A stretch of 64,000 bases of DNA from an uncultured Bacillales bacterium (GCA_946409515.1 CAMJWS010000001.1:318824-382823); one strand, 5' to 3'; positions 23,546-54,087 are shown, numbered from the stretch's first letter. The notes: generated by a model from the sequence alone, not told the origin. Made by a program: numbers and translations.

Positions 23546-23700
23546 TCCTCTTCGTCATGTCCGGTGCCGGGTTTATTCTGCCAAGCTTTAACGCAGATGC
23601 CGGTGACTATTGCTAGTCAGGTGGGATCGTACCGATAACCACTATTTCTAATGGTTCTTTGCTAGTGCAACCAGTTAACGACGGTTCTTTAATCCTTCGA
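23546..23700. repeat. Repeat module 3 of the GC-rich RNA-like block
   Basis: Shares the CCTCTTYGTCWTGTCCGG leader, the hairpin at 23561-23607 (loop CCAAGCTTTAACG) and the trailing CTTTAATCC motif with modules at 23867 and 24166. Confidence 0.5.
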
Positions 23701-23866: not shown

Positions 23867-24008
23867 CCCTCTTTGTCTTGTGTCCGGCGGTGGTTTTACG
23901 CTGTTAAACTCTAACTCAGCGACCACTGTAGCAGTGAGGTTTGCCGTTTGAATTTCCCGAAGGATTTCCAGCCTTTGCGATCATTGACTGGGAACTTTAA
24001 TCCCAGAG
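23867..24008. repeat. Repeat module 2 of the GC-rich RNA-like block
   Basis: Hairpin at 23884-23928: stem CGCUG/CAGCG plus GGUGG/CCACU, loop UUAAACUCUAACU. Followed by CTTTAATCC at 23996. Confidence 0.5.
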
Positions 24009-24165: not shown

Positions 24166-24310
24166 ATCCTCTTTGATCTTGTCGGGCGGTGGGTTTATGC
24201 TGTCAAACTCTAATTCAGCATCCACTGTAGCAGGGAGGATTTGCCCTTGATTGATTACGAGAACCAATCTGCCAGTACAATCATTGATCCAGACCTTTTC
24301 TTTAATCCTG
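24166..24310. repeat. Repeat module 1 of the GC-rich RNA-like block
   Basis: Hairpin at 24183-24227: stem UGCUG/CAGCA (compensatory relative to module 2), loop UCAAACUCUAAUU. Followed by CTTTAATCC at 24298. Confidence 0.5.
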
Positions 24311-35187: not shown

Positions 35188-37224
35188 TTGAATGGCATTC
35201 ACTTTTTGCTTTATAATAGCGTCATGAAATTTGGAATTCTTGTTAAAAAAATTAGACAAAGATATAGACTCACACAAAAGGAATTAGCGGACGCTCTTGG
35301 CTATTCTCATAAGTCTATGATCAGCAAAATCGAAAAAGGCGAAACAGAAATGAGCTATGATAAAGCCGTTCTTCTTGTAGAGAAGTTTGGTTTAAACGCT
35401 AACGAATTATTTTTTGAAATTAATGAAAAACCATCTTTAGATGGTCGTGATAAAAAGATTGTGACTATCCAAGATATTTCTTGTTATGGTCAATGCTCAA
35501 TTACTGTGGCTCTCCCTATCTTAAGTGCCTGTGGTTATGAAACCGCTATTTTACCAACATCTATTCTTTCTACTCATACCTCTGGTTTCCATGGTTTCGA
35601 ATATAAAGATATGGATGAGGAATTAGATAAATTCCTTAAACACTGGGATAGAGAAAATTTAGGATTTGACGCTATCTATACTGGTTATTTAGGCAGTGTC
35701 TCCTTAGTGGACTTTACCTTAAGAGCAATTAAACAATTAAAGAAAGAAAACTCTTTGGTAATTGTTGATCCTGCCATGGGTGATAAAGGTAAATTATATC
35801 CAGCGTTTAATGAAGAATACGCACTAAAAATGCGTGAACTCATCAAAGAAGCGGATATCATCTTACCAAACATTACAGAAGCCGCTTATATGAGTGGCGT
35901 TGCTTATAAAGAAAAATACGACAAGCCATATATCGAAAACTTAGTGAAAGAATTAAGCAAATATACATCCGCGAAGATTATTCTTACTGATGTTTCTTTC
36001 CAAAAGAACACCACTGGTGTCTTTATCTATGATAATGGCTATATGCAATATTATAAGCATCACAAGATTGGTAACGGTTATCATGGCACAGGTGATATCT
36101 TCTCTTCTACCTTCGTCGCCTCTTACTTAAAGAACCGTGAATTATATCTATCCGTTAAAATGGCTGCGGATTATGTCTATCGATGTATTAACTACACCCA
36201 AAGTGATAAGAATCACTGGTATGGGGTGAAATTTGAACCATTATTAAATGGATTAGTTAATAAATTAAATGATATCGAAAGGACAAATAGAAAAATGATC
36301 TTAAAACATGTCGACGAAGCAGTCGGTAAAACTCCATTAGTGGAGCTCACAAATTACGAACAAAACTTAAAATTAAACGCGAGAATTATCGCTAAAGTTG
36401 AATACTTCAACCCAGCAGGTTCTGTCAAAGACAGAATCGCTAAAGCGATGATTGATAAAGGTGAAAAAGATGGCTTAATTAAGAAAGATACAATCTTAAT
36501 TGAACCAACAAGTGGTAATACAGGTATTGGCTTAGCTATGGTCAGTGCCGCACGTGGCTATCGCTTAATCATCACAATGCCTGAAACCATGTCTATTGAA
36601 AGAAGAAACCTTTTAAAAGCCTACGGTGCAGAACTCGTCTTAACTGATGGTAAGTTAGGTATGAAAGGCGCTATCGCTAAAGCGGAAGAATTACACGCTC
36701 AATATCCTAACAGTGTGATTCCAAGCCAATTCACAAACCCCGCTAATCCAAACGCCCACTACTTAACAACGGGTCCAGAAATTTTTGAAGAATTAAGTGG
36801 TCGCGTTGATATCTTTGTGGCTGGTGTTGGTACTGGTGGCACAATCTCTGGTGTTGGTAAATACTTAAAAGAACAAAATCCAGAAATTAAGATTGTTGCA
36901 GTTGAACCAGAATCTTCTCCAGTCTTATCAAAAGGCACACCTGGTCCACATAAGATTCAAGGTATTGGTGCAGGCTTTGTTCCTCAAACACTTAATACTG
37001 AAATCTATGATGAAATTATCACAGTTTCAAACGAAGATGCCTTCGCTACTGGTAAGACCTTAGCAAGAAAAGAAGGCTTACTTGTTGGTATCTCTAGTGG
37101 CGCGGCTGTGAAGGCGGCAACTATCTTAGCCCAACGTAAAGAAAATCAAAGTAAAACTATCGTGGTTCTCTTACCAGATACTGGTGAAAGATACTTATCC
37201 ACAGACATGTTCAAAGAAGAATAG
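35188..37224 (+). CDS. Tri-domain fusion: HTH_XRE DNA-binding domain + pyridoxal kinase (PdxY/PdxK) + cysteine synthase/O-acetylserine sulfhydrylase (CysK)
   Basis: aa 13-80 are an XRE helix-turn-helix ([26 protein letters not shown]). aa about 88-360 match PdxY ([27 protein letters not shown]). aa about 368-678 are CysK ([16 protein letters not shown] lysine motif, [17 protein letters not shown]). The reading frame is uninterrupted. Confidence 0.75.
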
Positions 37225-37362: not shown

Positions 37363-37734
37363 TTATTTGCATTTTTTATTCTTTTTTGTTTTAATATTTT
37401 TGCCGGATTCGCTATTATTGCGACTATTACTAGTCTGCAGGTCTCCGGCTTTTTTAATATCAGGATAACTAACATCTACGTTTTGTCGAATCTCTAGTTT
37501 TCTTGAACTAAAACGATTTTTTGAATCTTTCTGTTCTTGCTTTACTATGTACATTGGCTTGTCCCCACCACTCACAAGGGGATTTTTCTTTTTCCAATTC
37601 TTCTTTCCACCTGAAGTTTTGGAATGTGTCACACGATGGAAGATGTACTTATTCCCTTCTTCATCCACAATATAAGCTGGGTGTCCGTTTCTAAAATAAA
37701 TTCTAAAATGTCTTTCAAAGATTTTGTTTTTCAT
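37363..37734 (-). CDS. Hypothetical basic protein (Lys-rich C-terminus)
   Basis: 123-aa ORF with GGAGG RBS; no recognisable motif. Confidence 0.4.
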   Translation of the reverse strand: MKNKIFERHFRIYFRNGHPAYIVDEEGNKYIFHRVTHSKTSGGKKNWKKKNPLVSGGDKPMYIVKQEQKDSKNRFSSRKLEIRQNVDVSYPDIKKAGDLQTSNSRNNSESGKNIKTKKNKKCK

Positions 37735-37789: not shown

Positions 37790-39646
37790 TTAGAACTTCT
37801 TTTTCAAAGTAACAATATTCTTGTGATTGATATAGTCATAGGCGTATTCACTCATTAACTTCTTAACAATTAATATGCCTAAACCACCCTCCGCTCGTTT
37901 AGCGTAGTTGCCATCAAGTGGCTCATTATTAACGGTAAATGGATCGAACTTATCCGCTCTATCGATAATGGTCATAACGAATTCGTTTTGATCTTCATTA
38001 TAGAGCAATCTGATGAATATATCATCAGTGTATTCAGCGTAGCCGTATTTAATGATGTTAGATAGCATTTCATCAGCGACAACACATAAGCTATTAATGA
38101 AGCCTTCTTCAATGTTCATTTCATGAGCGAATTCTTCAATTAAACCAATCATCTTTGGAAGGCTATCTTTTTCGCCTCTAAATGTTTCTTGCTTATATAG
38201 ATATCTATCACCATGATATTTCATTGTGATATAAGTCATATCATCCGCTTGATCTTCACCATCAACGAATCTTTCAATATCGTCTTTTAAGGTGTGATGC
38301 AATTCTAATAAGCAGGAATACTTCTTCGCGTTAAATAAAGCGATTAAACGGTCTTCTCCATAGAATAAACCCTTAGAGTTACGGGCTTCGGTAATGCCGT
38401 CTGTATATAAAGTTAAAGTATCACCATTTTTAAGTTGATATTTCTCATTAGTGACGAATACATCTTTAAGAGGTCCTAAGACAAAACCTGGTTTACATTT
38501 TAAGTAATGATAGTCTTGTTTTTGACCAACAATAGGAGGATTGTGTCCCGCATTTGCGAAGTTCATCTCACCTGTTTTAGTGTTGATTACTGCATAGAAG
38601 CAGGTCACAAACATATTGGAGTCATTGCCTTTATTAATGATTCTATTAACTTCTTTTAAGACCTCTTCTGGAGTTTTATCAATAGAAGCACAGTTTCTAA
38701 AGCAAGTAATGGTTTTCATCATAAACATTGCCGCTGGAATACCTTTACCAGAGACATCAGCGATGACTAATGCTGCGTGTTCATTATCAAGCAAGAAATA
38801 GTCATAGAAGTCACCACCAACGTGCTTCGCTGCTTTTAGTTCTGCTTGAATTTCAATATCTTCACTAGTGACGAATTCCGTTGGTAATGTCGCCATTTGA
38901 ATCTCTTTAGCGACGTCTAATTCTGTTCTAGTCTTTTCTTGTTCACTATTAACACTAATTTCTTGTTTTAATAATTTATAAGTTCTGACGTTTAAGGAGT
39001 TCGAAACAACAAAGATCAACGCTAAGAGCAAAGCTCTTGGTAAGAAAGTAAAAGTCAAAGCTTGTAAGTATCTATTTTGACCTGCTACTAATTGTTCGTG
39101 TAATAAGTCATAACGTTCTTTAACACCAAAGACTTCTACCGCATCACCATTAACGACTTCTTTAATACCTAAGATATTCGCGTCATATTCACCTACGAAC
39201 AAAGATAAGAATAAGCAAAGTAACATTAAAATAGAAATCACACCAAAGGTGATTCTACCTAACTTAGGATTATAGTAATGGTTAGTCATAATGATACATA
39301 ATGCCCAACCAATAAATGAGTTCCTTGGTAAGATGACATTAAGTACGGCGATAATCATCACGAAAGAGAAAACCACAAAGAACTTATAATTTGGTTTCTT
39401 TAAAGCCTTCTTAAACTTAAATACATATAGCAAAGGCGTTAATAAGATAACGATACTAATTGGGAAGGCAATATTGATTAAAGGCATGATTTGAGGTGAA
39501 GCATAGAATGCCCCTGTCATATAGCAAATCCAAATGCCTAAAAGCAAAGCCGCACCAAAAGCGTTAGCGATACTCATCTGTTTGTTCGCATCCGCTTCGT
39601 TTTCGTAATAAGCTTCTAAATATTTATTTCTCTCAAACTCAGTCAT
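37790..39646 (-). CDS. Membrane-anchored PP2C (SpoIIE/RsbU-type) phosphatase fused to a C-terminal GHKL (RsbW-like HATPase_c) kinase domain
   Basis: About 6 N-terminal TM helices; central SpoIIE domain (ADVSGKGIPAAMFM, DGITEA); C-terminal HATPase_c (ADEMLSNIIKYG...GGLGILIVKKL). Confidence 0.75.
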   Translation of the reverse strand: MTEFERNKYLEAYYENEADANKQMSIANAFGAALLLGIWICYMTGAFYASPQIMPLINIAFPISIVILLTPLLYVFKFKKALKKPNYKFFVVFSFVMIIAVLNVILPRNSFIGWALCIIMTNHYYNPKLGRITFGVISILMLLCLFLSLFVGEYDANILGIKEVVNGDAVEVFGVKERYDLLHEQLVAGQNRYLQALTFTFLPRALLLALIFVVSNSLNVRTYKLLKQEISVNSEQEKTRTELDVAKEIQMATLPTEFVTSEDIEIQAELKAAKHVGGDFYDYFLLDNEHAALVIADVSGKGIPAAMFMMKTITCFRNCASIDKTPEEVLKEVNRIINKGNDSNMFVTCFYAVINTKTGEMNFANAGHNPPIVGQKQDYHYLKCKPGFVLGPLKDVFVTNEKYQLKNGDTLTLYTDGITEARNSKGLFYGEDRLIALFNAKKYSCLLELHHTLKDDIERFVDGEDQADDMTYITMKYHGDRYLYKQETFRGEKDSLPKMIGLIEEFAHEMNIEEGFINSLCVVADEMLSNIIKYGYAEYTDDIFIRLLYNEDQNEFVMTIIDRADKFDPFTVNNEPLDGNYAKRAEGGLGILIVKKLMSEYAYDYINHKNIVTLKKKF

Positions 39647-39648
39647 AA

Positions 39649-40803
39649 TTAGATACCTATATCAATGTCATCATATTTATCTAGTAAGGCAATTAATCTT
39701 TCCTTACAACCATTTAATCTCTTTTGATTATCCTTTTGGTTAGTTAATGTCCACCACACCATATGAGCGTAGCAAACTAAAGCAATCTTATCTTTAATAA
39801 TCTCATCTTCTTTACCGAAGTATAAACGGATAATATCATCATAAAGCTTGACACAGTACTCCCCTTTTAAGCCAAAGAACTGTTCACTATTACCTGGAGC
39901 ATCTTCTTCAAAAGCGACATATGGGCAGCGGAGATTTGCGAGTTCAAAGATTGGATGACCCACTGATAAGGTATCCATATCAATTAATAAGAAGTCTTCA
40001 CCTTGGACCATGATGTTTTTAAAGTGGCAGTCCCCATGGACAAAGGTACTTCTTTCAGGAACACTCTTCATAAGTGCTAAAGCTTTTTCATAATGAGCTT
40101 CATCTAAAAGAGGTTTAATGGTTTCCACTTTTTCGATAAAGAATTTCTTAATAGAAGGAACTGATGGATCAAAACATTTAGTACTATTAATCTTCTTTAA
40201 TAATTCGACATATTTATTTAATAATTCTTCATATTTTTCTGGATATTTACTAAAGGCATTCTTTAAAGACATACAGTCAAGCATTTCAAAACGGACACCT
40301 AGTTTATCCTTAACTTTAACGATATCAAAAGATATCGCAGTAGGAATACCTAAGACGAATGCTTGTTTAGCGAGTTTTAATTCTCTTTCAATTTGTTTTT
40401 CATCACTAGTTCTATTAAAGACCTTAATGATGGTGTCTTTATCGATACGATAAACTGTGGAGAAGAAACCTTCACCAATAACTTCCGCACCATCGACAGA
40501 CATTTCTCTAACGGCTTTTTTAACATCCATGATGTTGGTAAAACCAGTCATTTGTAAAACATCATAAACATCCAAACTAGCGTTTATAACATGTGAGTCA
40601 TTAAATCTCTGTTTAATCTTTAAGATAATACGAAGACCCGCACTAGAGATGTATTGAAGTTTAGCGAAGTCTAAATTGAGTGTTTGAAATTTATTTGAGG
40701 AAAGAACTTCATCAATTTCTTTTTCTATATACTCAGAATTATAAGAGTTAAGTTCTCCTTCGAAAAATAAAGTGAGTAAATTATCAATTAATTCAAAACG
40801 CAT
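39649..40803 (-). CDS. STAS (anti-sigma-factor antagonist-like) domain fused to an APH/protein-kinase-like phosphotransferase domain
   Basis: N-terminal STAS with a SpoIIAA-like phospho-Ser motif (YISSAGLRIIL). The C-terminal domain has a Gly-rich loop (IGEGFFSTVYR), beta3 Lys (IIKVF), a catalytic HGDCHFKNIM and IDMDT (Brenner/APH motifs). Confidence 0.7.
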   Translation of the reverse strand: MRFELIDNLLTLFFEGELNSYNSEYIEKEIDEVLSSNKFQTLNLDFAKLQYISSAGLRIILKIKQRFNDSHVINASLDVYDVLQMTGFTNIMDVKKAVREMSVDGAEVIGEGFFSTVYRIDKDTIIKVFNRTSDEKQIERELKLAKQAFVLGIPTAISFDIVKVKDKLGVRFEMLDCMSLKNAFSKYPEKYEELLNKYVELLKKINSTKCFDPSVPSIKKFFIEKVETIKPLLDEAHYEKALALMKSVPERSTFVHGDCHFKNIMVQGEDFLLIDMDTLSVGHPIFELANLRCPYVAFEEDAPGNSEQFFGLKGEYCVKLYDDIIRLYFGKEDEIIKDKIALVCYAHMVWWTLTNQKDNQKRLNGCKERLIALLDKYDDIDIGI

Positions 40804-40873
40804 ATACCGTCTCCCTTATATATGTATGCCTTTACATACATTATAACGAATTATACGTATACGCGCTAATTAT

Positions 40874-41836
40874 TTATATTTGTCCTTCGCTGCTTGAAGA
40901 TGGATTTGAACTACTATTACCAAATGGATTCTTAGGAGCGCTTAGTTCATAGGCTAAATTCATCACTGTATTCAATGAATCTTCATCGATGAGCTTTTCA
41001 AAAGATGTAGAGTAATTTCTACCATATTTATCTTGTGTTGAGTAATAAGCTTTTACTAATCTATCTTCTCTGAACACATCAATTGTCCAACCTGAGCCTC
41101 TGATATAAAGACGTGTCTCTGAACCATGTCTATAAAAGCCAACAGGTAAATTCTCAAACGTCGCGCTCTTTAAAGCGGTGCAAATAGAACCATCGTCTTT
41201 GAATGTGAAGTCATAATATCTTGCAGGTGTTTCATCAGTGACAAAGACGAATTCTAAATCGACATTTTCATCTTCACTCATTTTATTGATGACAGAGAAC
41301 AAGGTCATTTCATTAATCATGTCGTTATATTCACGCTCAATGTTGTCGCGTTCTTCTTGTTCTCTTCTTTCTTCTTCTCTAATGGCTTGATATTCATTAT
41401 CAATCATTTTGAAAACTGATTTTGCTATCTCTTCATCGAATTGATAATAAAAGGTAAGATCCTTTCCTTGATTTCGATCGTATCTACTTGTTGTGGCATA
41501 TCCATTCTCATAAAAAGCAATTTCATGGTATCCATATCCTAGGAACATAGTGTATCTAAAGTGCAAGGTAAAAGTTGTATCGCTTAATTCTGGTGTGCCT
41601 TTCATATATAAGTATTCGGCATCATCAACCTTAGATATTACCTTATTAACGATGTCACCATTAAATCTGTAAGTATTATATGTTATATAATTTCCACCAA
41701 TGTTAGTCTTAGCGAGATATTTACTTGGGTTTTGCTCAGCAGTATAGTCTCTATCGCTTTTAAAAAGCCAGGAACAGGATGCTGTAGAGATAACGATAAG
41801 GGAAATAGGTAACATTAGTAACGCTTTTTTGCTCAT
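40874..41836 (-). CDS. Lipoprotein, function unknown
   Basis: Signal peptide with lipobox ISTASC; acidic ERREQEER repeat segment. Confidence 0.5.
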   Translation of the reverse strand: MSKKALLMLPISLIVISTASCSWLFKSDRDYTAEQNPSKYLAKTNIGGNYITYNTYRFNGDIVNKVISKVDDAEYLYMKGTPELSDTTFTLHFRYTMFLGYGYHEIAFYENGYATTSRYDRNQGKDLTFYYQFDEEIAKSVFKMIDNEYQAIREEERREQEERDNIEREYNDMINEMTLFSVINKMSEDENVDLEFVFVTDETPARYYDFTFKDDGSICTALKSATFENLPVGFYRHGSETRLYIRGSGWTIDVFREDRLVKAYYSTQDKYGRNYSTSFEKLIDEDSLNTVMNLAYELSAPKNPFGNSSSNPSSSSEGQI

Positions 41837-41904
41837 AGTGGTTTACCACCTTTCACTTATTAGACGTTAATAAATATAGAAAACTGCTAAACAAATATCA
41901 ATCT

Positions 41905-42255
41905 TTATGAATGATATTGCTTCAGCAACTCTTTTTTAGCGGTTTCTAAGTCAATCTTACCAATAGTGTATAAATGAATAATCTTCTTTGCTTGAGAAGA
42001 TGGCTCCATGCCATCGGTAGAGTTAATAATGTACGCTAAGGTTTCAATTTCTGTAGGTTCTTTTTCTTCATCATTCAATTCAAAAGGAATGCCTTTTTTC
42101 AAAGCGACTTGTCGTAAGAATAAATCAATAGCCTGACTCATAGATATGCCAATTGTATTAAGTATCCTTTCTGCTTCCTTTTTAATGTCGGATTGTATCC
42201 TTGCGTGCACTACCTCATTCTTCATATTCCATATCCTCACTAAAAATTGCATCAC
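41905..42255 (-). CDS. Ribbon-helix-helix protein, RelB/DinJ antitoxin-like, with C-terminal extension; no adjacent toxin gene
   Basis: VHARIQSDIKKEAERILNTIGISMSQAIDLFLRQVALKKGIPFEL aligns with the DinJ N-terminal RHH. The true start is probably an internal Met (MKNEVV, about 42225). Confidence 0.55.
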   Translation of the reverse strand: MMQFLVRIWNMKNEVVHARIQSDIKKEAERILNTIGISMSQAIDLFLRQVALKKGIPFELNDEEKEPTEIETLAYIINSTDGMEPSSQAKKIIHLYTIGKIDLETAKKELLKQYHS

Positions 42256-42308
42256 GAACGTGACACATTATCAAAGTATTATTAGCACTATTATCTTGAG
42301 ATAATTAC

Positions 42309-43433
42309 TTAAAACTTCTTTAGTAATTCTCTAATATGTTCAAGGCACTTTTTCTTATCTTCTTCAGGCATATTGCGTTTCTTAAGATAATGTAAAGCGC
42401 GTACACAGCCAATTAATCTAGCTTTATCAATCGCGAGTTGATATTGTTTATCATTTAAATCACTATAGTATTTTCTAGAGATTGTTTTCCATAAATAATT
42501 CGCGGTCTCTAGGGAGATACCTAAAAAGTCTTCAATCGCTGCGCGTCTAATTTCACCAAATTCGAAATATGAGTTACAGACACTAGCGATTTCAAATATT
42601 GGATTACCAGTACATAAGGTATCCATATCAATAAGCATTAGGTCATTACCAACTAGAAGTTGGTTCTTAAGATGAAAATCACCATGAATAAGAGTCTTAG
42701 TTTCTGGTATATCTTCAATAAGTTTTTTAAGTTTTAGATATTCTTGGTCGCTTAAGAAGATTCTAATGTTATTCACATATTTAAGATGACTCTTCTTCAT
42801 ATCTGGTAATGAAGGATCATCACAAACTGTTGTGTGCATCTTCTTTAAGACAGCCACTGCTTTATCAGCAAAGTCATCAAGATTCTTTTGACTTTGTTTA
42901 ACGTAGTTGACACATGATTCAGCATTTAATAATTCAAAGACTGTACCATATTGGTCGCCCACTTTAACTGTATCAAGCGCTATCGCGGTAGGTAAACCTA
43001 GTACAAATGCCTTTTTAGATAGTTCTCTTTCTCGATTAATATCTTCTAATGAGGAACCTAGTTCATAGACCTTAACAATGGTATCTGGGGCAGTAGAATA
43101 TACGGTACCGTGTGCGCCCTTTCCGATAATTTTGCAGCCATCTACTGACACTTGACGTAAGGCTTTTTCAACAGTGACGATATTAGTGAAACCTGTCATT
43201 TCAAAGATGTCATAAACAGAGATAGAAGTATTAATAACACAGACTTTATCAAATCTCTTTTTAAGGCCTAAAACAACACGAAGACCCGCACTAGAAATGT
43301 ATTTCATTCCCTGTGCATCAAGCACTATTTCGTCATAACTATGACCTTCTATTTGCTTAAGAATATCTGCTTCAACTTCAGCAAAATTATCAAATGATAA
43401 AGAAGATGGTAATTGATAAGTAAAGATAACCAT
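42309..43433 (-). CDS. STAS domain + APH/protein-kinase-like domain fusion (paralog of 39649-40803)
   Basis: YISSAGLRVVL STAS motif; IGKGAHGTVYS Gly-loop; HGDFHLKNQLL catalytic loop; IDMDT. Confidence 0.7.
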   Translation of the reverse strand: MVIFTYQLPSSLSFDNFAEVEADILKQIEGHSYDEIVLDAQGMKYISSAGLRVVLGLKKRFDKVCVINTSISVYDIFEMTGFTNIVTVEKALRQVSVDGCKIIGKGAHGTVYSTAPDTIVKVYELGSSLEDINRERELSKKAFVLGLPTAIALDTVKVGDQYGTVFELLNAESCVNYVKQSQKNLDDFADKAVAVLKKMHTTVCDDPSLPDMKKSHLKYVNNIRIFLSDQEYLKLKKLIEDIPETKTLIHGDFHLKNQLLVGNDLMLIDMDTLCTGNPIFEIASVCNSYFEFGEIRRAAIEDFLGISLETANYLWKTISRKYYSDLNDKQYQLAIDKARLIGCVRALHYLKKRNMPEEDKKKCLEHIRELLKKF

Positions 43434-43561: not shown

Positions 43562-44464
43562 TTATTTAAGTGGCTTGTATTTTATTTGCAAAGTATCAAA
43601 ATCGTCAAATTGTTCATATAACATAATATTTTTCTCTGCGGCTATGCTTCTCAGCTTTTCTAATTGCTTTGAGGATACGTTTTTTCCAACATATATTCGT
43701 TTAATTTTTGGTACCTTAATTTTATCTTTCGGCTTGCCAATTATTCTCCATTCTTTCTGAAATGACCATTCTTTGTATTTTGTTAAAAAGACTTGCATGA
43801 ATTTTAAGGTGTTATTAAATTCCTTTATTTTTCCACCAGATAATTGAAATACAAAAGTATCCAGTTGCGAGCCTATAACATCCATAATCAAATTATTATT
43901 TTTCTTAGAGCGATATAGAACTGGATATGTATTCGATAGCGCAAAACCATCATCAGAAAAATCATATTCTATACAAACACCAGAATAGTGCTTCGCGTAC
44001 ATTTCCCACATAACTTGGTTTTTATCACATTCAGTTAGTGAGCCGATACCAATTTCTTTATAAGCGTTATATGCTATTTTGAAAAGGCTCAATGCGGCTT
44101 TTTCGTTTTCTTTTGAAAGATTTGAATCAGAAACCACATCAGCAGCTAATTGTTGCAATTGTTGAGCATTTTTTCTTTCAAAAGAATTACCATATTTTTT
44201 GAAAAACTTCTCTATTTCTTTAGAATTCATATCAATAACGCAAGCTCTTATTAAACGCTTGTATTGTTCTTTACTGATATCACTGGGATAGCGAGACAAT
44301 CTATCCGTTAAATTATTAATAAAAGAATCACTGCTAAAATCCATACTTTTAATATCATCTGTCAAAGTATCGATAATTCTACACTCAAATTGATCATCCA
44401 ATTTAAAAGCAGGACACATGTAGATGTAATTCTTACTAATTGAATCAAGAGTATATCTATTCAA
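43562..44464 (-). CDS. DUF2971-like protein
   Basis: MWEMYAKHYSGVCIEYDF and FQKEWRIIGK resemble the conserved DUF2971 motifs (MWxxYA..GvCi, EKEWR). Confidence 0.4.
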   Translation of the reverse strand: MNRYTLDSISKNYIYMCPAFKLDDQFECRIIDTLTDDIKSMDFSSDSFINNLTDRLSRYPSDISKEQYKRLIRACVIDMNSKEIEKFFKKYGNSFERKNAQQLQQLAADVVSDSNLSKENEKAALSLFKIAYNAYKEIGIGSLTECDKNQVMWEMYAKHYSGVCIEYDFSDDGFALSNTYPVLYRSKKNNNLIMDVIGSQLDTFVFQLSGGKIKEFNNTLKFMQVFLTKYKEWSFQKEWRIIGKPKDKIKVPKIKRIYVGKNVSSKQLEKLRSIAAEKNIMLYEQFDDFDTLQIKYKPLK

Positions 44465-44629: not shown

Positions 44630-45022
44630 TTACTTTTCTTTACGGAAATAGGCTCTATCATGAGCAATTTGTCTTAAACACTTTTCACCGTGGATGAAGC
44701 ATTGTTCATCAGTCGGTCTTGAAAATGAAGAGATGATAAGGAAAACTCCCAAAAGAGTGTCAAGAGAAGCACCAACAATATAAATAATCATTCGTGCATC
44801 ACCGTAGTAAAGACTAGCGTATTCTCTACCTATTTCGTTTAAAGTGATTTCACCAAAAACAATGATAATGATAAACACTAAAACAGCACTTGCAATCGCC
44901 CCTATTCCAATACCTCTTTTAATCCAATAGAGTTTTGGATAATGGCTTCGACCATATTCAATGACTTGTTGTCTGGTATATTCTTTGTCACCATATTGAT
45001 ATGTACTTGCCATAATAGTCAC
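44630..45022 (-). CDS. Small membrane protein
   Basis: 130 aa with two TM segments. Confidence 0.35.
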   Translation of the reverse strand: MTIMASTYQYGDKEYTRQQVIEYGRSHYPKLYWIKRGIGIGAIASAVLVFIIIIVFGEITLNEIGREYASLYYGDARMIIYIVGASLDTLLGVFLIISSFSRPTDEQCFIHGEKCLRQIAHDRAYFRKEK

Positions 45023-49337: not shown

Positions 49338-49832
49338 ATGGCAAAAACTCTATACTCAGCATTCTTTAATAAAGAGGATTGGGCCGTTAAAGAGGTCTAT
49401 TCCTACTACTCACGCTTAGTGAAGCATGTTTCTTTTGAAATACTTCATGATAATGACCTAGCGGATGATGTCGTTAGTGAAACATTTATCAAGTTATTAG
49501 AAAAAGGAAAAGTTGATAACGATAGTAACTTTGTTGCCTATATGTGCGCTATCGCGAAGAACTTATCCTTAAACATGATAAAAGAAAGAAATAGATATGA
49601 ATCACTGAACGAAGATATCGCTATGTCCACTGATGAAAAGAAGGACGACATCCTTGATATCTTAAAGGGTAAGTTAGAAGAAGATGAATATAATATCCTC
49701 GTTATGCGAGCGGTACTAGAGTATCCCTTCAATGATATTGCTCTAGTTTATAAAGCCACAGCTTCTTCAATGCGTGGCATCTACTTCAGAGCAAAGAAAA
49801 AAGCACAAAAACTTTTGGAGGGACTTTTATGA
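49338..49832 (+). CDS. ECF-type sigma-70 family RNA polymerase sigma factor
   Basis: 164 aa; region 2-like DLADDVVSETFIKLL and region 4-like FNDIALVYKATASSMRGIYFRAKKK. Confidence 0.65.
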   Translation: MAKTLYSAFFNKEDWAVKEVYSYYSRLVKHVSFEILHDNDLADDVVSETFIKLLEKGKVDNDSNFVAYMCAIAKNLSLNMIKERNRYESLNEDIAMSTDEKKDDILDILKGKLEEDEYNILVMRAVLEYPFNDIALVYKATASSMRGIYFRAKKKAQKLLEGLL

Positions 49833-51301
49833 GTTTGAAAAACAAATTAAAAGAAGCTTACAGCAATAAAGTAACCACCCCTAAGGGTTATCAAGAATTA
49901 AATAATAAAGTTGAAATAAAGAAAACCCACCACAATGCCTTTAAAACAGTGAAGTGGGTCAGCATTGGTTCATTATCTCTTGTGGGTACATTCGTATTAG
50001 TGGTCGCTAGTGTCGCTATTTTCTCTAACATGAAGATCACTGAGAATTTTGCAGACAGTGTTAAGAAAGCAAGATTCTCCATGTATGACACCAACTTATT
50101 AGAGAGTGAAACATTTAAGCGCCTTAATAACATCACTTATGATCAAGAAAAGAAAAACGAACCAATAAGTGAAGACTTTGTTACCTATGTAAATAGTTTT
50201 ACAGAAAAGACCTATCAAGGTTTTAATAAAACATCTAACTTTGCGTATTCTCCTTTAATGGTGTATACCCAAATGGACCTCATCTCCTTAGCGCTCTCTG
50301 ACGATGAAGCCATCGCAGAAGTTAATGCCGCTTTAGGTACAAGTGATATGGAGTTTAGAGGCACTAATGTGCGTAACGCTATGCTTAACAATTCCTATGC
50401 GAATAAGGAATATAAGAGTACCGTACAAACTAAAAACGCTGTGTTCTATGATCCAGATCGCGCTGAATCAGACATTAATCAAAATTTCTTAACAGGTTTA
50501 ACCGCTAGACGCGCTGAAGCTTATAGTATGAGTTATAATCTTGATAATGATATCAATAACATCCTTAAATGGATTGATGAAAGTGTGAATGAAACTGGAT
50601 TCTTAACCAAACAAGATTTAGAAATAGATGAAGATACATTTATTATGTTTGTTTCCAGTTTATATTTTGATAATGCTTGGCAAAACAAATATGTCGCTAA
50701 AGACACTAAAAATGATACTTTCCATCTTAGTGATGGAGAAACAGTCACTACAAAGTTTATGAACCATGTCATCCTCAATGAATATCGTGACTTTGGTGAT
50801 TATGTTTCAGTAAAAGACGGCTATAGATATGGCTACTATGTAGAGTACTTTGTGCCTAAAAAGCTTGAGGATAATATCTTTAACGTTTTGCCAAACGATT
50901 TCTTAACTAAAGAAGTTGAGCCTAAATACGCTGCAATTAGTCTTTCGGTTCCTAAACTTGATATGACATGTAAAAGTGACATTACTGACATCATTAAAGG
51001 AACAGGCATTCAAAAGATGTATGAACACGAATCAGGCCACTACTACTTAGATAATGCCTGTGAAACACCAAACTTTGAAGATGCATCATGGGTTAAGTTC
51101 ACAAAGCAAAAAACTTCTGTGAGTTTTGATGAAGATGGCACAGTTGTTAAATCAATCACTTTCTCCGTCGGCAATGGAACGGACTCATATCATCCTAGTA
51201 ATGGTTATGAAGTGACATTAAATCAACCATTTGTGTACGTCATTAAAGATAGTAACGGTTTGCCTCTTGTTCTAGGAGCAGTAAATAATCCAAAAGCGTA
51301 A
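49829..51301 (+). CDS. Membrane-anchored serpin-family protein (candidate anti-sigma factor/partner of the ECF sigma)
   Basis: ATGA start overlap with the sigma gene. About 40-aa cytoplasmic N-terminus and one TM. The extracytoplasmic domain carries serpin hallmarks FIMFVSSLYFDNAWQNKY (breach/shutter), FDEDGTVVKSITFSVGNG (hinge and reactive-centre loop) and PFVYVIKDSNGLPLVLGAVNNP (C-terminal serpin motif). Confidence 0.65.
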   Translation: MSLKNKLKEAYSNKVTTPKGYQELNNKVEIKKTHHNAFKTVKWVSIGSLSLVGTFVLVVASVAIFSNMKITENFADSVKKARFSMYDTNLLESETFKRLNNITYDQEKKNEPISEDFVTYVNSFTEKTYQGFNKTSNFAYSPLMVYTQMDLISLALSDDEAIAEVNAALGTSDMEFRGTNVRNAMLNNSYANKEYKSTVQTKNAVFYDPDRAESDINQNFLTGLTARRAEAYSMSYNLDNDINNILKWIDESVNETGFLTKQDLEIDEDTFIMFVSSLYFDNAWQNKYVAKDTKNDTFHLSDGETVTTKFMNHVILNEYRDFGDYVSVKDGYRYGYYVEYFVPKKLEDNIFNVLPNDFLTKEVEPKYAAISLSVPKLDMTCKSDITDIIKGTGIQKMYEHESGHYYLDNACETPNFEDASWVKFTKQKTSVSFDEDGTVVKSITFSVGNGTDSYHPSNGYEVTLNQPFVYVIKDSNGLPLVLGAVNNPKA

Positions 51302-53212: not shown

Positions 53213-53270
53213 ATGAATTACTATAGCAAAAAAGAATCAGGTAATAAACCTGACTCTTATTAATCGATCA
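53107..53270. repeat. Direct repeat copy A (amidohydrolase 5' end plus upstream terminator)
   Basis: About 85% identical to 54121-54278. Confidence 0.7.
53227..53254 (-). terminator. Intrinsic terminator after the 275-aa gene
   Basis: TCAGGTAATAAACCTGA hairpin followed by a U-run on the minus strand. Confidence 0.6.
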
Positions 53271-54087
53271 CTTTCTTTCCAGTAAATATATCGGTATAGA
53301 GACTTTCTTCGTATTCTCTTAGTTTTTCTTCATACTCTTCTTTGGTTATTTCGCCATCGCTGAACTTTTTGGCTAAGTAATATTCATGAGTATATAAATC
53401 GGTATAGCGACCAAAAACTAATTCCGTTGTATTAGGGTATAGTGGCTTTTGCTTATCATAATGATTATTTTCGCCCTTAATTAGATATAAGAAATCGATA
53501 TCTTCTTCTTTGGCATAAGACCACCACCAGAGGTGCCGGTTACCGGGTCTATTTGTATCAAAGCGAATAATTACATACCCTTGCTTTTTTTCGCTATATT
53601 TGAATACCATGGCGTATTCAGGGCTAGTTTTAAAATAGGCTTTGATATAGACATTGTCACCGAATTTAAATTTTTTGCCATTACACGAGCCTTCATCATA
53701 AGTTTCTTTGGGAAAACGTTCTAGAGTTTGTCTATTGTATTCCTCTCTAGTTATCTCGCCGTCGGTAACTCTTTTTGCCAAATAATAATCATCAGTGTAT
53801 AACTCACCATATTTAGCGGGATAAATGCATGTGTCTTCAGAAAATAATGGTTTATGTCTATCATAATAGTTATCTTTACCATCAATCTTTTCTAGAAGTT
53901 CAATGTCATCTTCTTTAGCGTAAGACCACCACCAAGAAGGATCTTCTGGAGAATAGGCATCGAACACAATGATGACATACATCTCTTTACTCTCGTCATA
54001 CTTAAATATCTGTGCATAGCAGCAGTCGATTTTTAAATAGGCTTTAACATAGACATTGTCACCAAATTTAAATTTTCTTTTCATCAT
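53260..54087 (-). CDS. Hypothetical protein built from two tandem copies of a domain of about 135 aa (KFKFGDNVY...WWWSYAKE-D...YYLAK...DGEIT.EEY)
   Basis: Residues about 5-135 and about 138-270 align along their length with roughly 45% identity. Confidence 0.5.
   Translation of the reverse strand: MMKRKFKFGDNVYVKAYLKIDCCYAQIFKYDESKEMYVIIVFDAYSPEDPSWWWSYAKEDDIELLEKIDGKDNYYDRHKPLFSEDTCIYPAKYGELYTDDYYLAKRVTDGEITREEYNRQTLERFPKETYDEGSCNGKKFKFGDNVYIKAYFKTSPEYAMVFKYSEKKQGYVIIRFDTNRPGNRHLWWWSYAKEEDIDFLYLIKGENNHYDKQKPLYPNTTELVFGRYTDLYTHEYYLAKKFSDGEITKEEYEEKLREYEESLYTDIFTGKKVID

Follow-up and report, generated by a model that had tools for sequence, protein, structure and literature searches.

A predicted partner-switching module of gut and rumen Firmicutes whose STAS proteins are fused to APH-type kinase domains

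Introduction

A 64,000-nucleotide stretch of DNA from an uncultured Bacillales bacterium (GCA_946409515.1 CAMJWS010000001.1:318824-382823), hereafter the window, encodes between positions 37,790 and 43,433 two paralogous proteins, A and B, that fuse an N-terminal STAS domain to a domain of the aminoglycoside phosphotransferase (APH)/choline kinase type, and a membrane protein that combines a PP2C phosphatase with an RsbW-like kinase domain. On balance, the sequences make it probable that these proteins form a partner-switching-type phospho-switch with a kinase, instead of a sigma factor, as its output. In the usual teaching, partner switching serves to free a sigma factor, and few of its non-sigma outputs have been worked out. 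An earlier note, made from the window's sequence alone, had proposed such a module; its open reading frames (ORFs) and coordinates were reproduced exactly by the ORF map used here. The features are listed in Table 1. The argument rests on the joint conservation of the switch serine and the kinase residues, on the integrity of both halves of the membrane protein, and on the persistent linkage of the genes in relatives.

The STAS-APH fusion proteins

Pfam domain scores are well above the gathering scores in all three module proteins. In A, a STAS domain (2.3e-12) is followed by an APH domain (7.2e-14), and the same order is found in B (1.1e-11 and 1.5e-16, respectively), as the earlier note had described. 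Every motif quoted there was located by translation: YISSAGLR, which spans residues 51-58 of A and 45-52 of B; the Gly-rich loop (IGEGFFSTVY in A, GKGAHGTVY in B); the β3 lysine (Lys127 in A, within VKVY in B); the catalytic loop (HGDCHFKN in A, HGDFHLKN in B); and IDMD, common to both. The kinase domain has the bilobal fold of the APH/choline kinase (ChoK) family with its helical C-lobe, and the linker between the STAS domain and the kinase N-lobe is about 10 residues long. The AlphaFold2 model of A has a pLDDT (predicted local distance difference test) of 92.3 and a pTM (predicted template modelling score) of 0.80.

As a direct homolog search yielded no relatives below 91% identity, the conservation set was built through a search of 50%-identity clusters followed by a profile; the resulting alignment holds 146 distinct full-length members drawn from 153 loci. 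Whether the STAS serine is conserved among homologs, and whether the C-terminal domain keeps the catalytic residues of a kinase fold, had been left by the earlier note as points on which its proposal could fail. Both come out in its favour. Ser54 of A, with Gly56 and Arg58, is present in all 146 members, and so are G110, G112, Lys127, Glu141, His256, Asp258, Asn263 and Asp275. Ser54 aligns with the phospho-acceptor of SpoIIAA and TM1442 (D-S-x-G-L motif). The N-lobe contains an additional invariant motif, G152-x-P-T-A-I-x-x-D160, that is the family's own. Since switch serine and kinase residues are all completely conserved, the switch residue and the kinase chemistry are under selection together.

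The affiliation of the two domains differs in clarity. Against the sequences of the PDB, the family profile matches SpoIIAA-type proteins at 1.5e-13 to 1e-11, and hygromycin and choline kinases weakly. The closest solved kinase-fold neighbours of the APH domain are 11-18% identical to it; most are aminoglycoside and macrolide kinases, and the peptide- or protein-acting members TvaE, LxmK, FN3K and YihE are also among them. The best NCBIfam match is TIGR02172 (1e-26), a Fibrobacter paralog family, with 94.5 bits for A and 93.7 bits for B against a cutoff of 228.2, by which score A and B are to be taken as relatives and not members of that family. A haemagglutinin HA2 entry, the top match of A in the sequence-only PDB search (E 1e-4), was disregarded as low-complexity or coiled-coil noise. 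A and B are 38% identical to each other, and B is 41-44% identical to the Clostridial type that is linked to HD_4 genes (see below); as B is nearer to that type than to A, the two paralogs of the window must have split long ago.

The fusion is no peculiarity of one genome. When 1.84 billion representatives of 50%-identity clusters were searched (E<=1e-30), 587 clusters with the STAS-APH architecture were returned, and in the best 150 of the 587 the proteins are nearly all 380-400 amino acids (aa) long and match from about residue 1. In 66 species of GTDB and at 80 metagenome loci, the fusion is encoded by a single unbroken ORF of about 390 aa. So many full-length clusters define a large family and exclude the frameshift-joined gene pair in a single genome that the earlier note had held up as a possible artefact. 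A profile search added further members from metagenome-assembled genomes (MAGs) of Clostridia, Ruminococcus and Lachnospiraceae. Relatives are annotated at NCBI as 'anti-sigma factor antagonist' or 'phosphotransferase'. An exact-sequence look-up of A returned no record, and literature searches found no publication on STAS-APH proteins.

The membrane PP2C-HATPase protein

On the 618-aa membrane protein, Pfam identifies SpoIIE (1.4e-52) and, behind it, HATPase_c_2 (PF13581; 2.4e-18), and finds neither a HisKA nor a STAS domain. The N-terminal region, in which Pfam finds no family, comprises five clear hydrophobic segments and one weaker segment on the Kyte-Doolittle scale. This agrees with the polytopic fusion of a PP2C phosphatase and an RsbW-like HATPase_c domain that the earlier note had placed next to A. 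The metal-site motifs of PPM phosphatases (GGD279, D297xSGKG, TDG417 with D416, and DD469 with D468-D469) are at least 95% conserved among 67 homologs, as are the N-box (E526, N530) and the G2 box (G587GxG590) of GHKL kinases. The HATPase_c_2 domain gives a weak match to the RsbW equivalog of NCBIfam, and the nearest solved sequences to the whole protein are the RssB-type PP2C of Pseudomonas aeruginosa (3es2) and Rv1364c (3ke6, 8.4e-11). By their residues, both halves look active, and the protein is predicted to be a bifunctional writer and eraser of phosphate on the STAS serine.

Linkage of the STAS-APH and PP2C-HATPase genes

Gene A lies upstream of the gene for the membrane protein, and only 2 nucleotides (nt) separate its TAA stop codon (39649-39651) from the next ATG (39644-39646). 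A survey of the gene neighbourhood in relatives, suggested by the earlier note, shows this adjacency to be conserved and tightly spaced. In the great majority of the loci from the 66 GTDB species, a PP2C-HATPase_c_2 gene comes after the A-type gene in the same orientation. When partners were counted with hidden Markov models built from the loci, within a radius of 4 kb and over the evaluable loci (51 from close and 26 from distant relatives), the fused phosphatase-kinase was found in 42 of the 51 close relatives, directly next to STAS-APH and in the same orientation. SpoIIE genes lying immediately downstream on the same strand begin at -11 to +11 nt in 59 of 62 cases. In all, 85 SpoIIE-domain genes occur within 2.5 kb of a STAS-APH gene against 3 in 0.8 Mb of farther flank, an enrichment of about 37-fold. 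Clostridial relatives, at about 40% identity, again adjoin SpoIIE-HATPase_c_2 proteins, which are 676-935 aa long and carry other sensors (5TM-5TMR_LYT in one).

The strongest evidence for the link is a sub-family of triple fusions, STAS-APH-HATPase_c_2, of about 530 aa, present in some Clostridia, in which the RsbW-like domain has been attached to the C-terminus of STAS-APH itself. This architecture was verified with Pfam on L117:7956-9572 and recurs at L109, L111, L114, L122, L130, L136, L142 and L149-L153; the triple fusions are flanked by a free STAS protein and a HAMP-SpoIIE phosphatase without a kinase domain. Another sub-family has a stand-alone HATPase_c_2 protein of 135-148 aa. Such split, fused and re-fused arrangements are the pattern expected of functionally interacting components, and together with the tight adjacency they support the functional link between STAS-kinase and PP2C-HATPase that the earlier note had drawn.

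The same data bear on the trivial explanation, namely that the STAS-APH proteins are antibiotic-resistance or metabolic kinases with unrelated neighbours. It would account for the Pfam APH assignment and for structural neighbours that are mostly aminoglycoside and macrolide kinases. Yet among resistance-family models the best match, APH(6)-I, reaches 18.8 bits against a cutoff of 325, a tblastn search of plasmids found no STAS-APH copy, and coincidence leaves unaccounted for the enrichment of SpoIIE at gaps of a few nucleotides, the persistence of the linkage down to about 40% identity and the natural triple fusions. With these linkage data and the recurrent partners, coincidence is essentially excluded, and we give it hardly any weight.

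In one species, the place of PP2C-HATPase downstream of STAS-APH is taken by a membrane protein of 586 aa that contains an EAL domain (L020:9407-11167).

The sigma-factor question

The window has 55 large non-overlapping ORFs, and the Pfam scan covered 53 of them; TM130 (44630-45022) was compared with PADLOC only, and the neighbour set of 53260-54087 was otherwise complete. Within the module, the scan found no sigma factor, as the earlier note had stated, and no extra STAS, HATPase_c_2 or SpoIIE gene. The sole sigma gene of the 64-kb window encodes a 164-aa protein of the extracytoplasmic function (ECF) type (49338-49832, plus strand), 5.9 kb from the module and on the opposite strand. It overlaps the gene for a downstream 490-aa protein with one transmembrane segment and a C-terminal serpin domain, an unusual anti-sigma-like partner (the pair spans 49338-51301 on the plus strand). 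Among the other 153 loci, this sigma gene was found only at the edge of L003, which is syntenic with the window. Having its own partner and no wider association with STAS-APH, this gene was rejected as a target of the module. The Pfam-annotated contexts of three distant relatives hold no sigma domain.

These observations weigh on a more conventional arrangement, in which a sigma factor encoded elsewhere would be held by the RsbW-like domain, unphosphorylated STAS-APH would be the anti-anti-sigma factor and the APH domain would provide an accessory second input. The STAS domain is indeed of the SpoIIAA/RsbV subtype, the kinase is a HATPase_c_2 domain, NCBI labels relatives as 'anti-sigma factor antagonist', and 64 kb of the genome are in view. 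Against this arrangement stand the absence of a sigma gene from the module, the remoteness and separate membrane partner of the one ECF gene in the window, its near-complete absence from the other loci and the lack of sigma domains in the three distant contexts; moreover, an accessory role of the APH domain would not require catalytic residues that are 100% conserved. We regard sigma control as improbable.

Other recurrent partners

Relatives of the module offer other partners, none of which (HD_4 protein, stand-alone STAS, SDF symporter) occurs in the 64-kb window. In 12 of the 26 evaluable distant loci (Clostridia), STAS-APH is immediately preceded by a gene for an HD_4 protein of about 190 aa. 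The two genes are often translationally coupled; in the called genes of two of the annotated contexts they are separated by 1 nt or overlap. The HD_4 proteins match small alarmone hydrolases (Lmo0812/4yf1, 2e-21; 7qoe, 8e-23) and the N-terminal hydrolase region of RelA/SpoT (1e-19 to 4e-27), and they keep the HDxxED and DKLxNMR motifs; by sequence, they are clear homologs of small alarmone hydrolases. Their coupling to STAS-APH hints at a nucleotide-related output. Taken further, the STAS-APH proteins would be signal-gated kinases making a phosphorylated nucleotide-type (alarmone-like) product, or another product phosphorylated on a ribose hydroxyl, which the coupled hydrolase homolog would remove; this more specific proposal is a speculative one, to which we assign a low probability.

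Additional stand-alone STAS proteins are encoded at 17 of the 51 close and 11 of the 26 distant evaluable loci. At several loci (L147:5035-9149, L148, L152, L070 and L071), a symporter of the SDF family (DctA/GltP-like) is followed by a stand-alone STAS gene in the same operon as STAS-APH. STAS domains are known to control SulP transporters, and the pairing of SDF symporter and STAS, for which this is a parallel, suggests that the switch has a second output.

Proposed mechanism

In the proposed phospho-switch, the N-terminal region of the membrane protein, with its five to six transmembrane segments, would sense an envelope or membrane cue, and the cue would set the balance between the RsbW/SpoIIAB-type serine kinase (HATPase_c_2) and the SpoIIE/RsbU-type PP2C phosphatase. 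From knowledge of the families and from gene context we infer the steps beyond this balance. The kinase would phosphorylate Ser54 of A and Ser48 of B, the phosphatase would dephosphorylate them, and the phosphorylation state of the STAS domain would gate the attached APH/choline-kinase-type kinase. Control might be exerted intramolecularly, on the adjoining N-lobe, which is conceivable because the linker is so short; alternatively, unphosphorylated STAS might be reversibly captured on the RsbW-like domain at the membrane. The APH-type kinase would then phosphorylate a hydroxyl group of its substrate, for which a small molecule is a likelier candidate than a protein.

Several observations count against this scheme. 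No PP2C or HATPase_c_2 gene lies within 4 kb at 9 of the 51 close and 12 of the 26 distant evaluable loci, from which it follows that writer and eraser are not always co-located with STAS-APH and that STAS-APH may have other partners. B has no kinase or phosphatase gene of its own, and that it is controlled by the module's membrane protein is presumed from the closeness of the genes. Finally, the preference for a small molecule derives solely from fold neighbours of 11-18% identity, and these include TvaE, LxmK, FN3K and YihE.

Loci that have only HD_4 and STAS-APH, where the serine is invariant and no HATPase_c_2 gene is nearby, could instead be explained if the APH-like domain itself phosphorylated STAS serines, either that of the fusion protein (in cis or in trans) or that of a free STAS protein, and were hence a part of the switch and not its output. 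Some APH-fold enzymes do phosphorylate peptides or proteins (TvaE, LxmK, YihE). At most loci, however, such an activity would be redundant with the RsbW-type kinase that is co-encoded or fused, and to our knowledge there is no STAS kinase with an APH-type fold; we consider this role of the domain quite unlikely.

The flow of information might also be reversed. The APH domain would then be the input, binding or phosphorylating a metabolite and modulating PP2C-HATPase through the STAS domain, as RsbR-type proteins use STAS as the output of a fused sensor, and the true targets would be other proteins, such as the stand-alone STAS paired with the SDF transporter. The frequency of extra stand-alone STAS genes, some with an adjoining SDF symporter, fits this idea. 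The window itself, however, encodes neither a stand-alone STAS nor an SDF protein, nor any other candidate for such a target; and the invariant serine of the fusion's own STAS domain marks it as a substrate. A reversed flow thus seems unlikely, and the phospho-switch with a kinase as output is the reading retained here.

Layout of the locus and its surroundings

Table 1. Features of the module in the window, with HD_4 genes of other loci; aa, amino acids.
Feature	Position	Strand	Basis	Remarks
Membrane PP2C-HATPase_c_2 protein, 618 aa	37790-39646	(-)	ORF map, Pfam	
N-terminal polytopic region (aa 24-220)	38987-39577	(-)	Kyte-Doolittle scan	Presumed sensor/anchor
SpoIIE/PPM phosphatase domain (PF07228; aa 288-477)	38216-38785	(-)	Pfam	
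RsbW/SpoIIAB-type GHKL Ser-kinase domain (HATPase_c_2; aa 492-616)	37799-38173	(-)	Pfam	
STAS-APH paralog A, 384 aa	39649-40803	(-)	ORF map, Pfam	
STAS domain of A (aa 5-100)	40504-40791	(-)		Predicted phospho-acceptor Ser54, codon 40642-40644
APH/choline-kinase-type domain of A (aa 101-384)	39652-40503	(-)		G110xG112, K127, E141, H256-G-D258-x-x-x-x-N263, D275-M-D277
STAS-APH paralog B, 374 aa	42309-43433	(-)	ORF map, Pfam, translation	
STAS domain of B (aa 4-92)	43158-43424	(-)		Predicted phospho-acceptor Ser48, codon 43290-43292
Kinase domain of B (aa 95-374)	42312-43151	(-)		
Lipoprotein-like ORF	40874-41836	(-)		Between A and B
RelB/DinJ-type antitoxin-like ORF, 116 aa	41905-42255	(-)		Between A and B
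HD_4 genes of other loci	L067:3878-4447, L070:5424-6011, L099:7390-7989, L147:7398-7958, ~20 further loci			Upstream of STAS-APH

Only the closest relatives (L001, L003 and L074) have gene B in the corresponding place. Both ORFs between A and B were rejected as members of the module, being missing from nearly all other loci. The lipoprotein-like ORF upstream of A is retained in the closest relatives at 44-51% identity, against 85-92% for A, and is thus fast-evolving; no family was found for it, nor for an ORF downstream of the membrane protein (37363-37734, minus strand), which encodes a very basic product of 123 aa and is retained at 59-77% identity. The RelB/DinJ-like ORF has no adjoining toxin gene, and its position is not conserved in other loci.

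Just upstream of B, a DUF2971 protein (43562-44464, minus strand) matches PDC-S31, a candidate defence family of PADLOC (5.9e-26); the three module proteins themselves match no defence system of PADLOC. On the other side of the module, a 678-aa protein (35188-37224, plus strand) fuses an XRE-type helix-turn-helix domain to a pyridoxal/HMP-kinase-like (Phos_pyr_kin) and a cysteine-synthase-like domain dependent on pyridoxal phosphate (PALP); it adjoins the module in relatives, at 83-97% identity.

A is 92% identical to a homolog in MAG RGIG8901, from water-deer omasum, and relatives carry the labels Bacilli, Erysipelotrichaceae, Acholeplasmatales or Ca. Enteromonas. An ORF-poor stretch of the window contains three Rfam cow-rumen-1 RNA motifs (23547-23606, 23868-23929 and 24168-24228, minus strand; 73-78 bits) spaced by about 300 nt, in keeping with the window's source, an uncultured rumen bacterium of the Bacilli.

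Significance

The STAS-APH proteins form a large family, with hundreds of clusters at 50% identity, that is abundant in Firmicutes of the rumen and the human gut. Their switch domain is hard-wired to a kinase that is catalytically intact by its residues, and the switch would thus have a phosphorylation reaction as its output. Once the substrate is identified, thousands of genes that currently carry the annotation 'anti-sigma factor antagonist' or 'phosphotransferase' would gain a function, and it would become clear how STAS governs an enzyme joined to it. The recurrent pairing with small alarmone hydrolase homologs raises a possible link to alarmone metabolism; were the product indeed alarmone-like, a new second-messenger or toxin-like pathway would stand under partner-switching control by a membrane sensor. 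The fused, split and triple-fused variants constitute natural controls for experiments.

Comparison with known systems

The module resembles the RsbV/RsbW/RsbU and SpoIIAA/SpoIIAB/SpoIIE systems of Bacillus subtilis in that a SpoIIAA-type STAS domain with its phospho-acceptor serine is co-encoded with a HATPase_c_2 kinase that has no HisKA domain and with a SpoIIE-family PP2C phosphatase that keeps its metal-binding aspartates. Unlike those systems, it has no sigma target, its kinase and phosphatase are one membrane polypeptide, and its STAS domain is joined to a kinase of the APH type. Partner switching entails a sigma factor, or another partner, that the kinase binds in alternation with STAS; no sigma gene was found in the module or in the annotated contexts of relatives, and the one ECF-type pair in the window is unrelated.

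Joint kinase-phosphatase proteins have precedents. In Rv1364c of Mycobacterium tuberculosis, a PP2C domain and then an RsbW-like kinase lie on one chain and act on the cognate STAS serine (PMC9138534). PP2C precedes HATPase_c_2 in the membrane protein as it does in Rv1364c (PAS-PP2C-RsbW-like kinase-STAS; 3ke6), but Rv1364c is cytoplasmic, senses through PAS, carries its STAS domain in cis and feeds SigF, whereas the module has a polytopic membrane sensor and STAS domains on separate proteins that bring their own enzyme. SypE of Vibrio fischeri likewise unites a serine kinase and a PP2C phosphatase in one protein and sets the phosphorylation state of the STAS protein SypA, with a non-sigma output (PMC10120452); it differs in its domain order (kinase-REC-PP2C) and in being soluble, and SypA is a stand-alone STAS protein.

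A parallel on the effector side is All4160 of Anabaena PCC 7120 (June 2026), a STAS-glycosyltransferase that an RsbW-type kinase phosphorylates on its STAS serine and a SpoIIE-type phosphatase reactivates, phosphorylation regulating the fused enzyme; its authors call STAS-enzyme switching a lineage-specific strategy (PMC13555669). Like the system of All4160, HenR and Alr3423, the module has an N-terminal STAS domain fused to an enzyme. An RsbW-type kinase and a SpoIIE-type phosphatase are encoded beside it and are its predicted regulators. The All4160 system has a Bac_transf sugar transferase as effector and a separate kinase and phosphatase, and is largely cyanobacterial; the module has an APH-type kinase as effector and belongs to gut and rumen Firmicutes. 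In Campylobacterota, non-sigma STAS outputs have been proposed from gene context in a survey (PMC9239204).

With the APH/ChoK family (PF01636; APH(2''), APH(4), LicA/ChoK, MTR kinase), the STAS-APH proteins share the bilobal fold, the Gly-rich loop, the Lys-Glu pair, HGDxHxxN and DxD; they stand apart by their low identity to solved members, their own N-lobe motif and the N-terminal STAS domain that is always present. The earlier note had called the architecture atypical and uncharacterised. As far as the STAS-APH proteins are concerned, the literature searches agree; for the arrangement as a whole the description was somewhat overstated, since fused PP2C/RsbW proteins (Rv1364c, SypE) and a STAS-enzyme switch (All4160) are known. 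What is known is the switch logic; what is new is a widespread APH-type effector domain on STAS.

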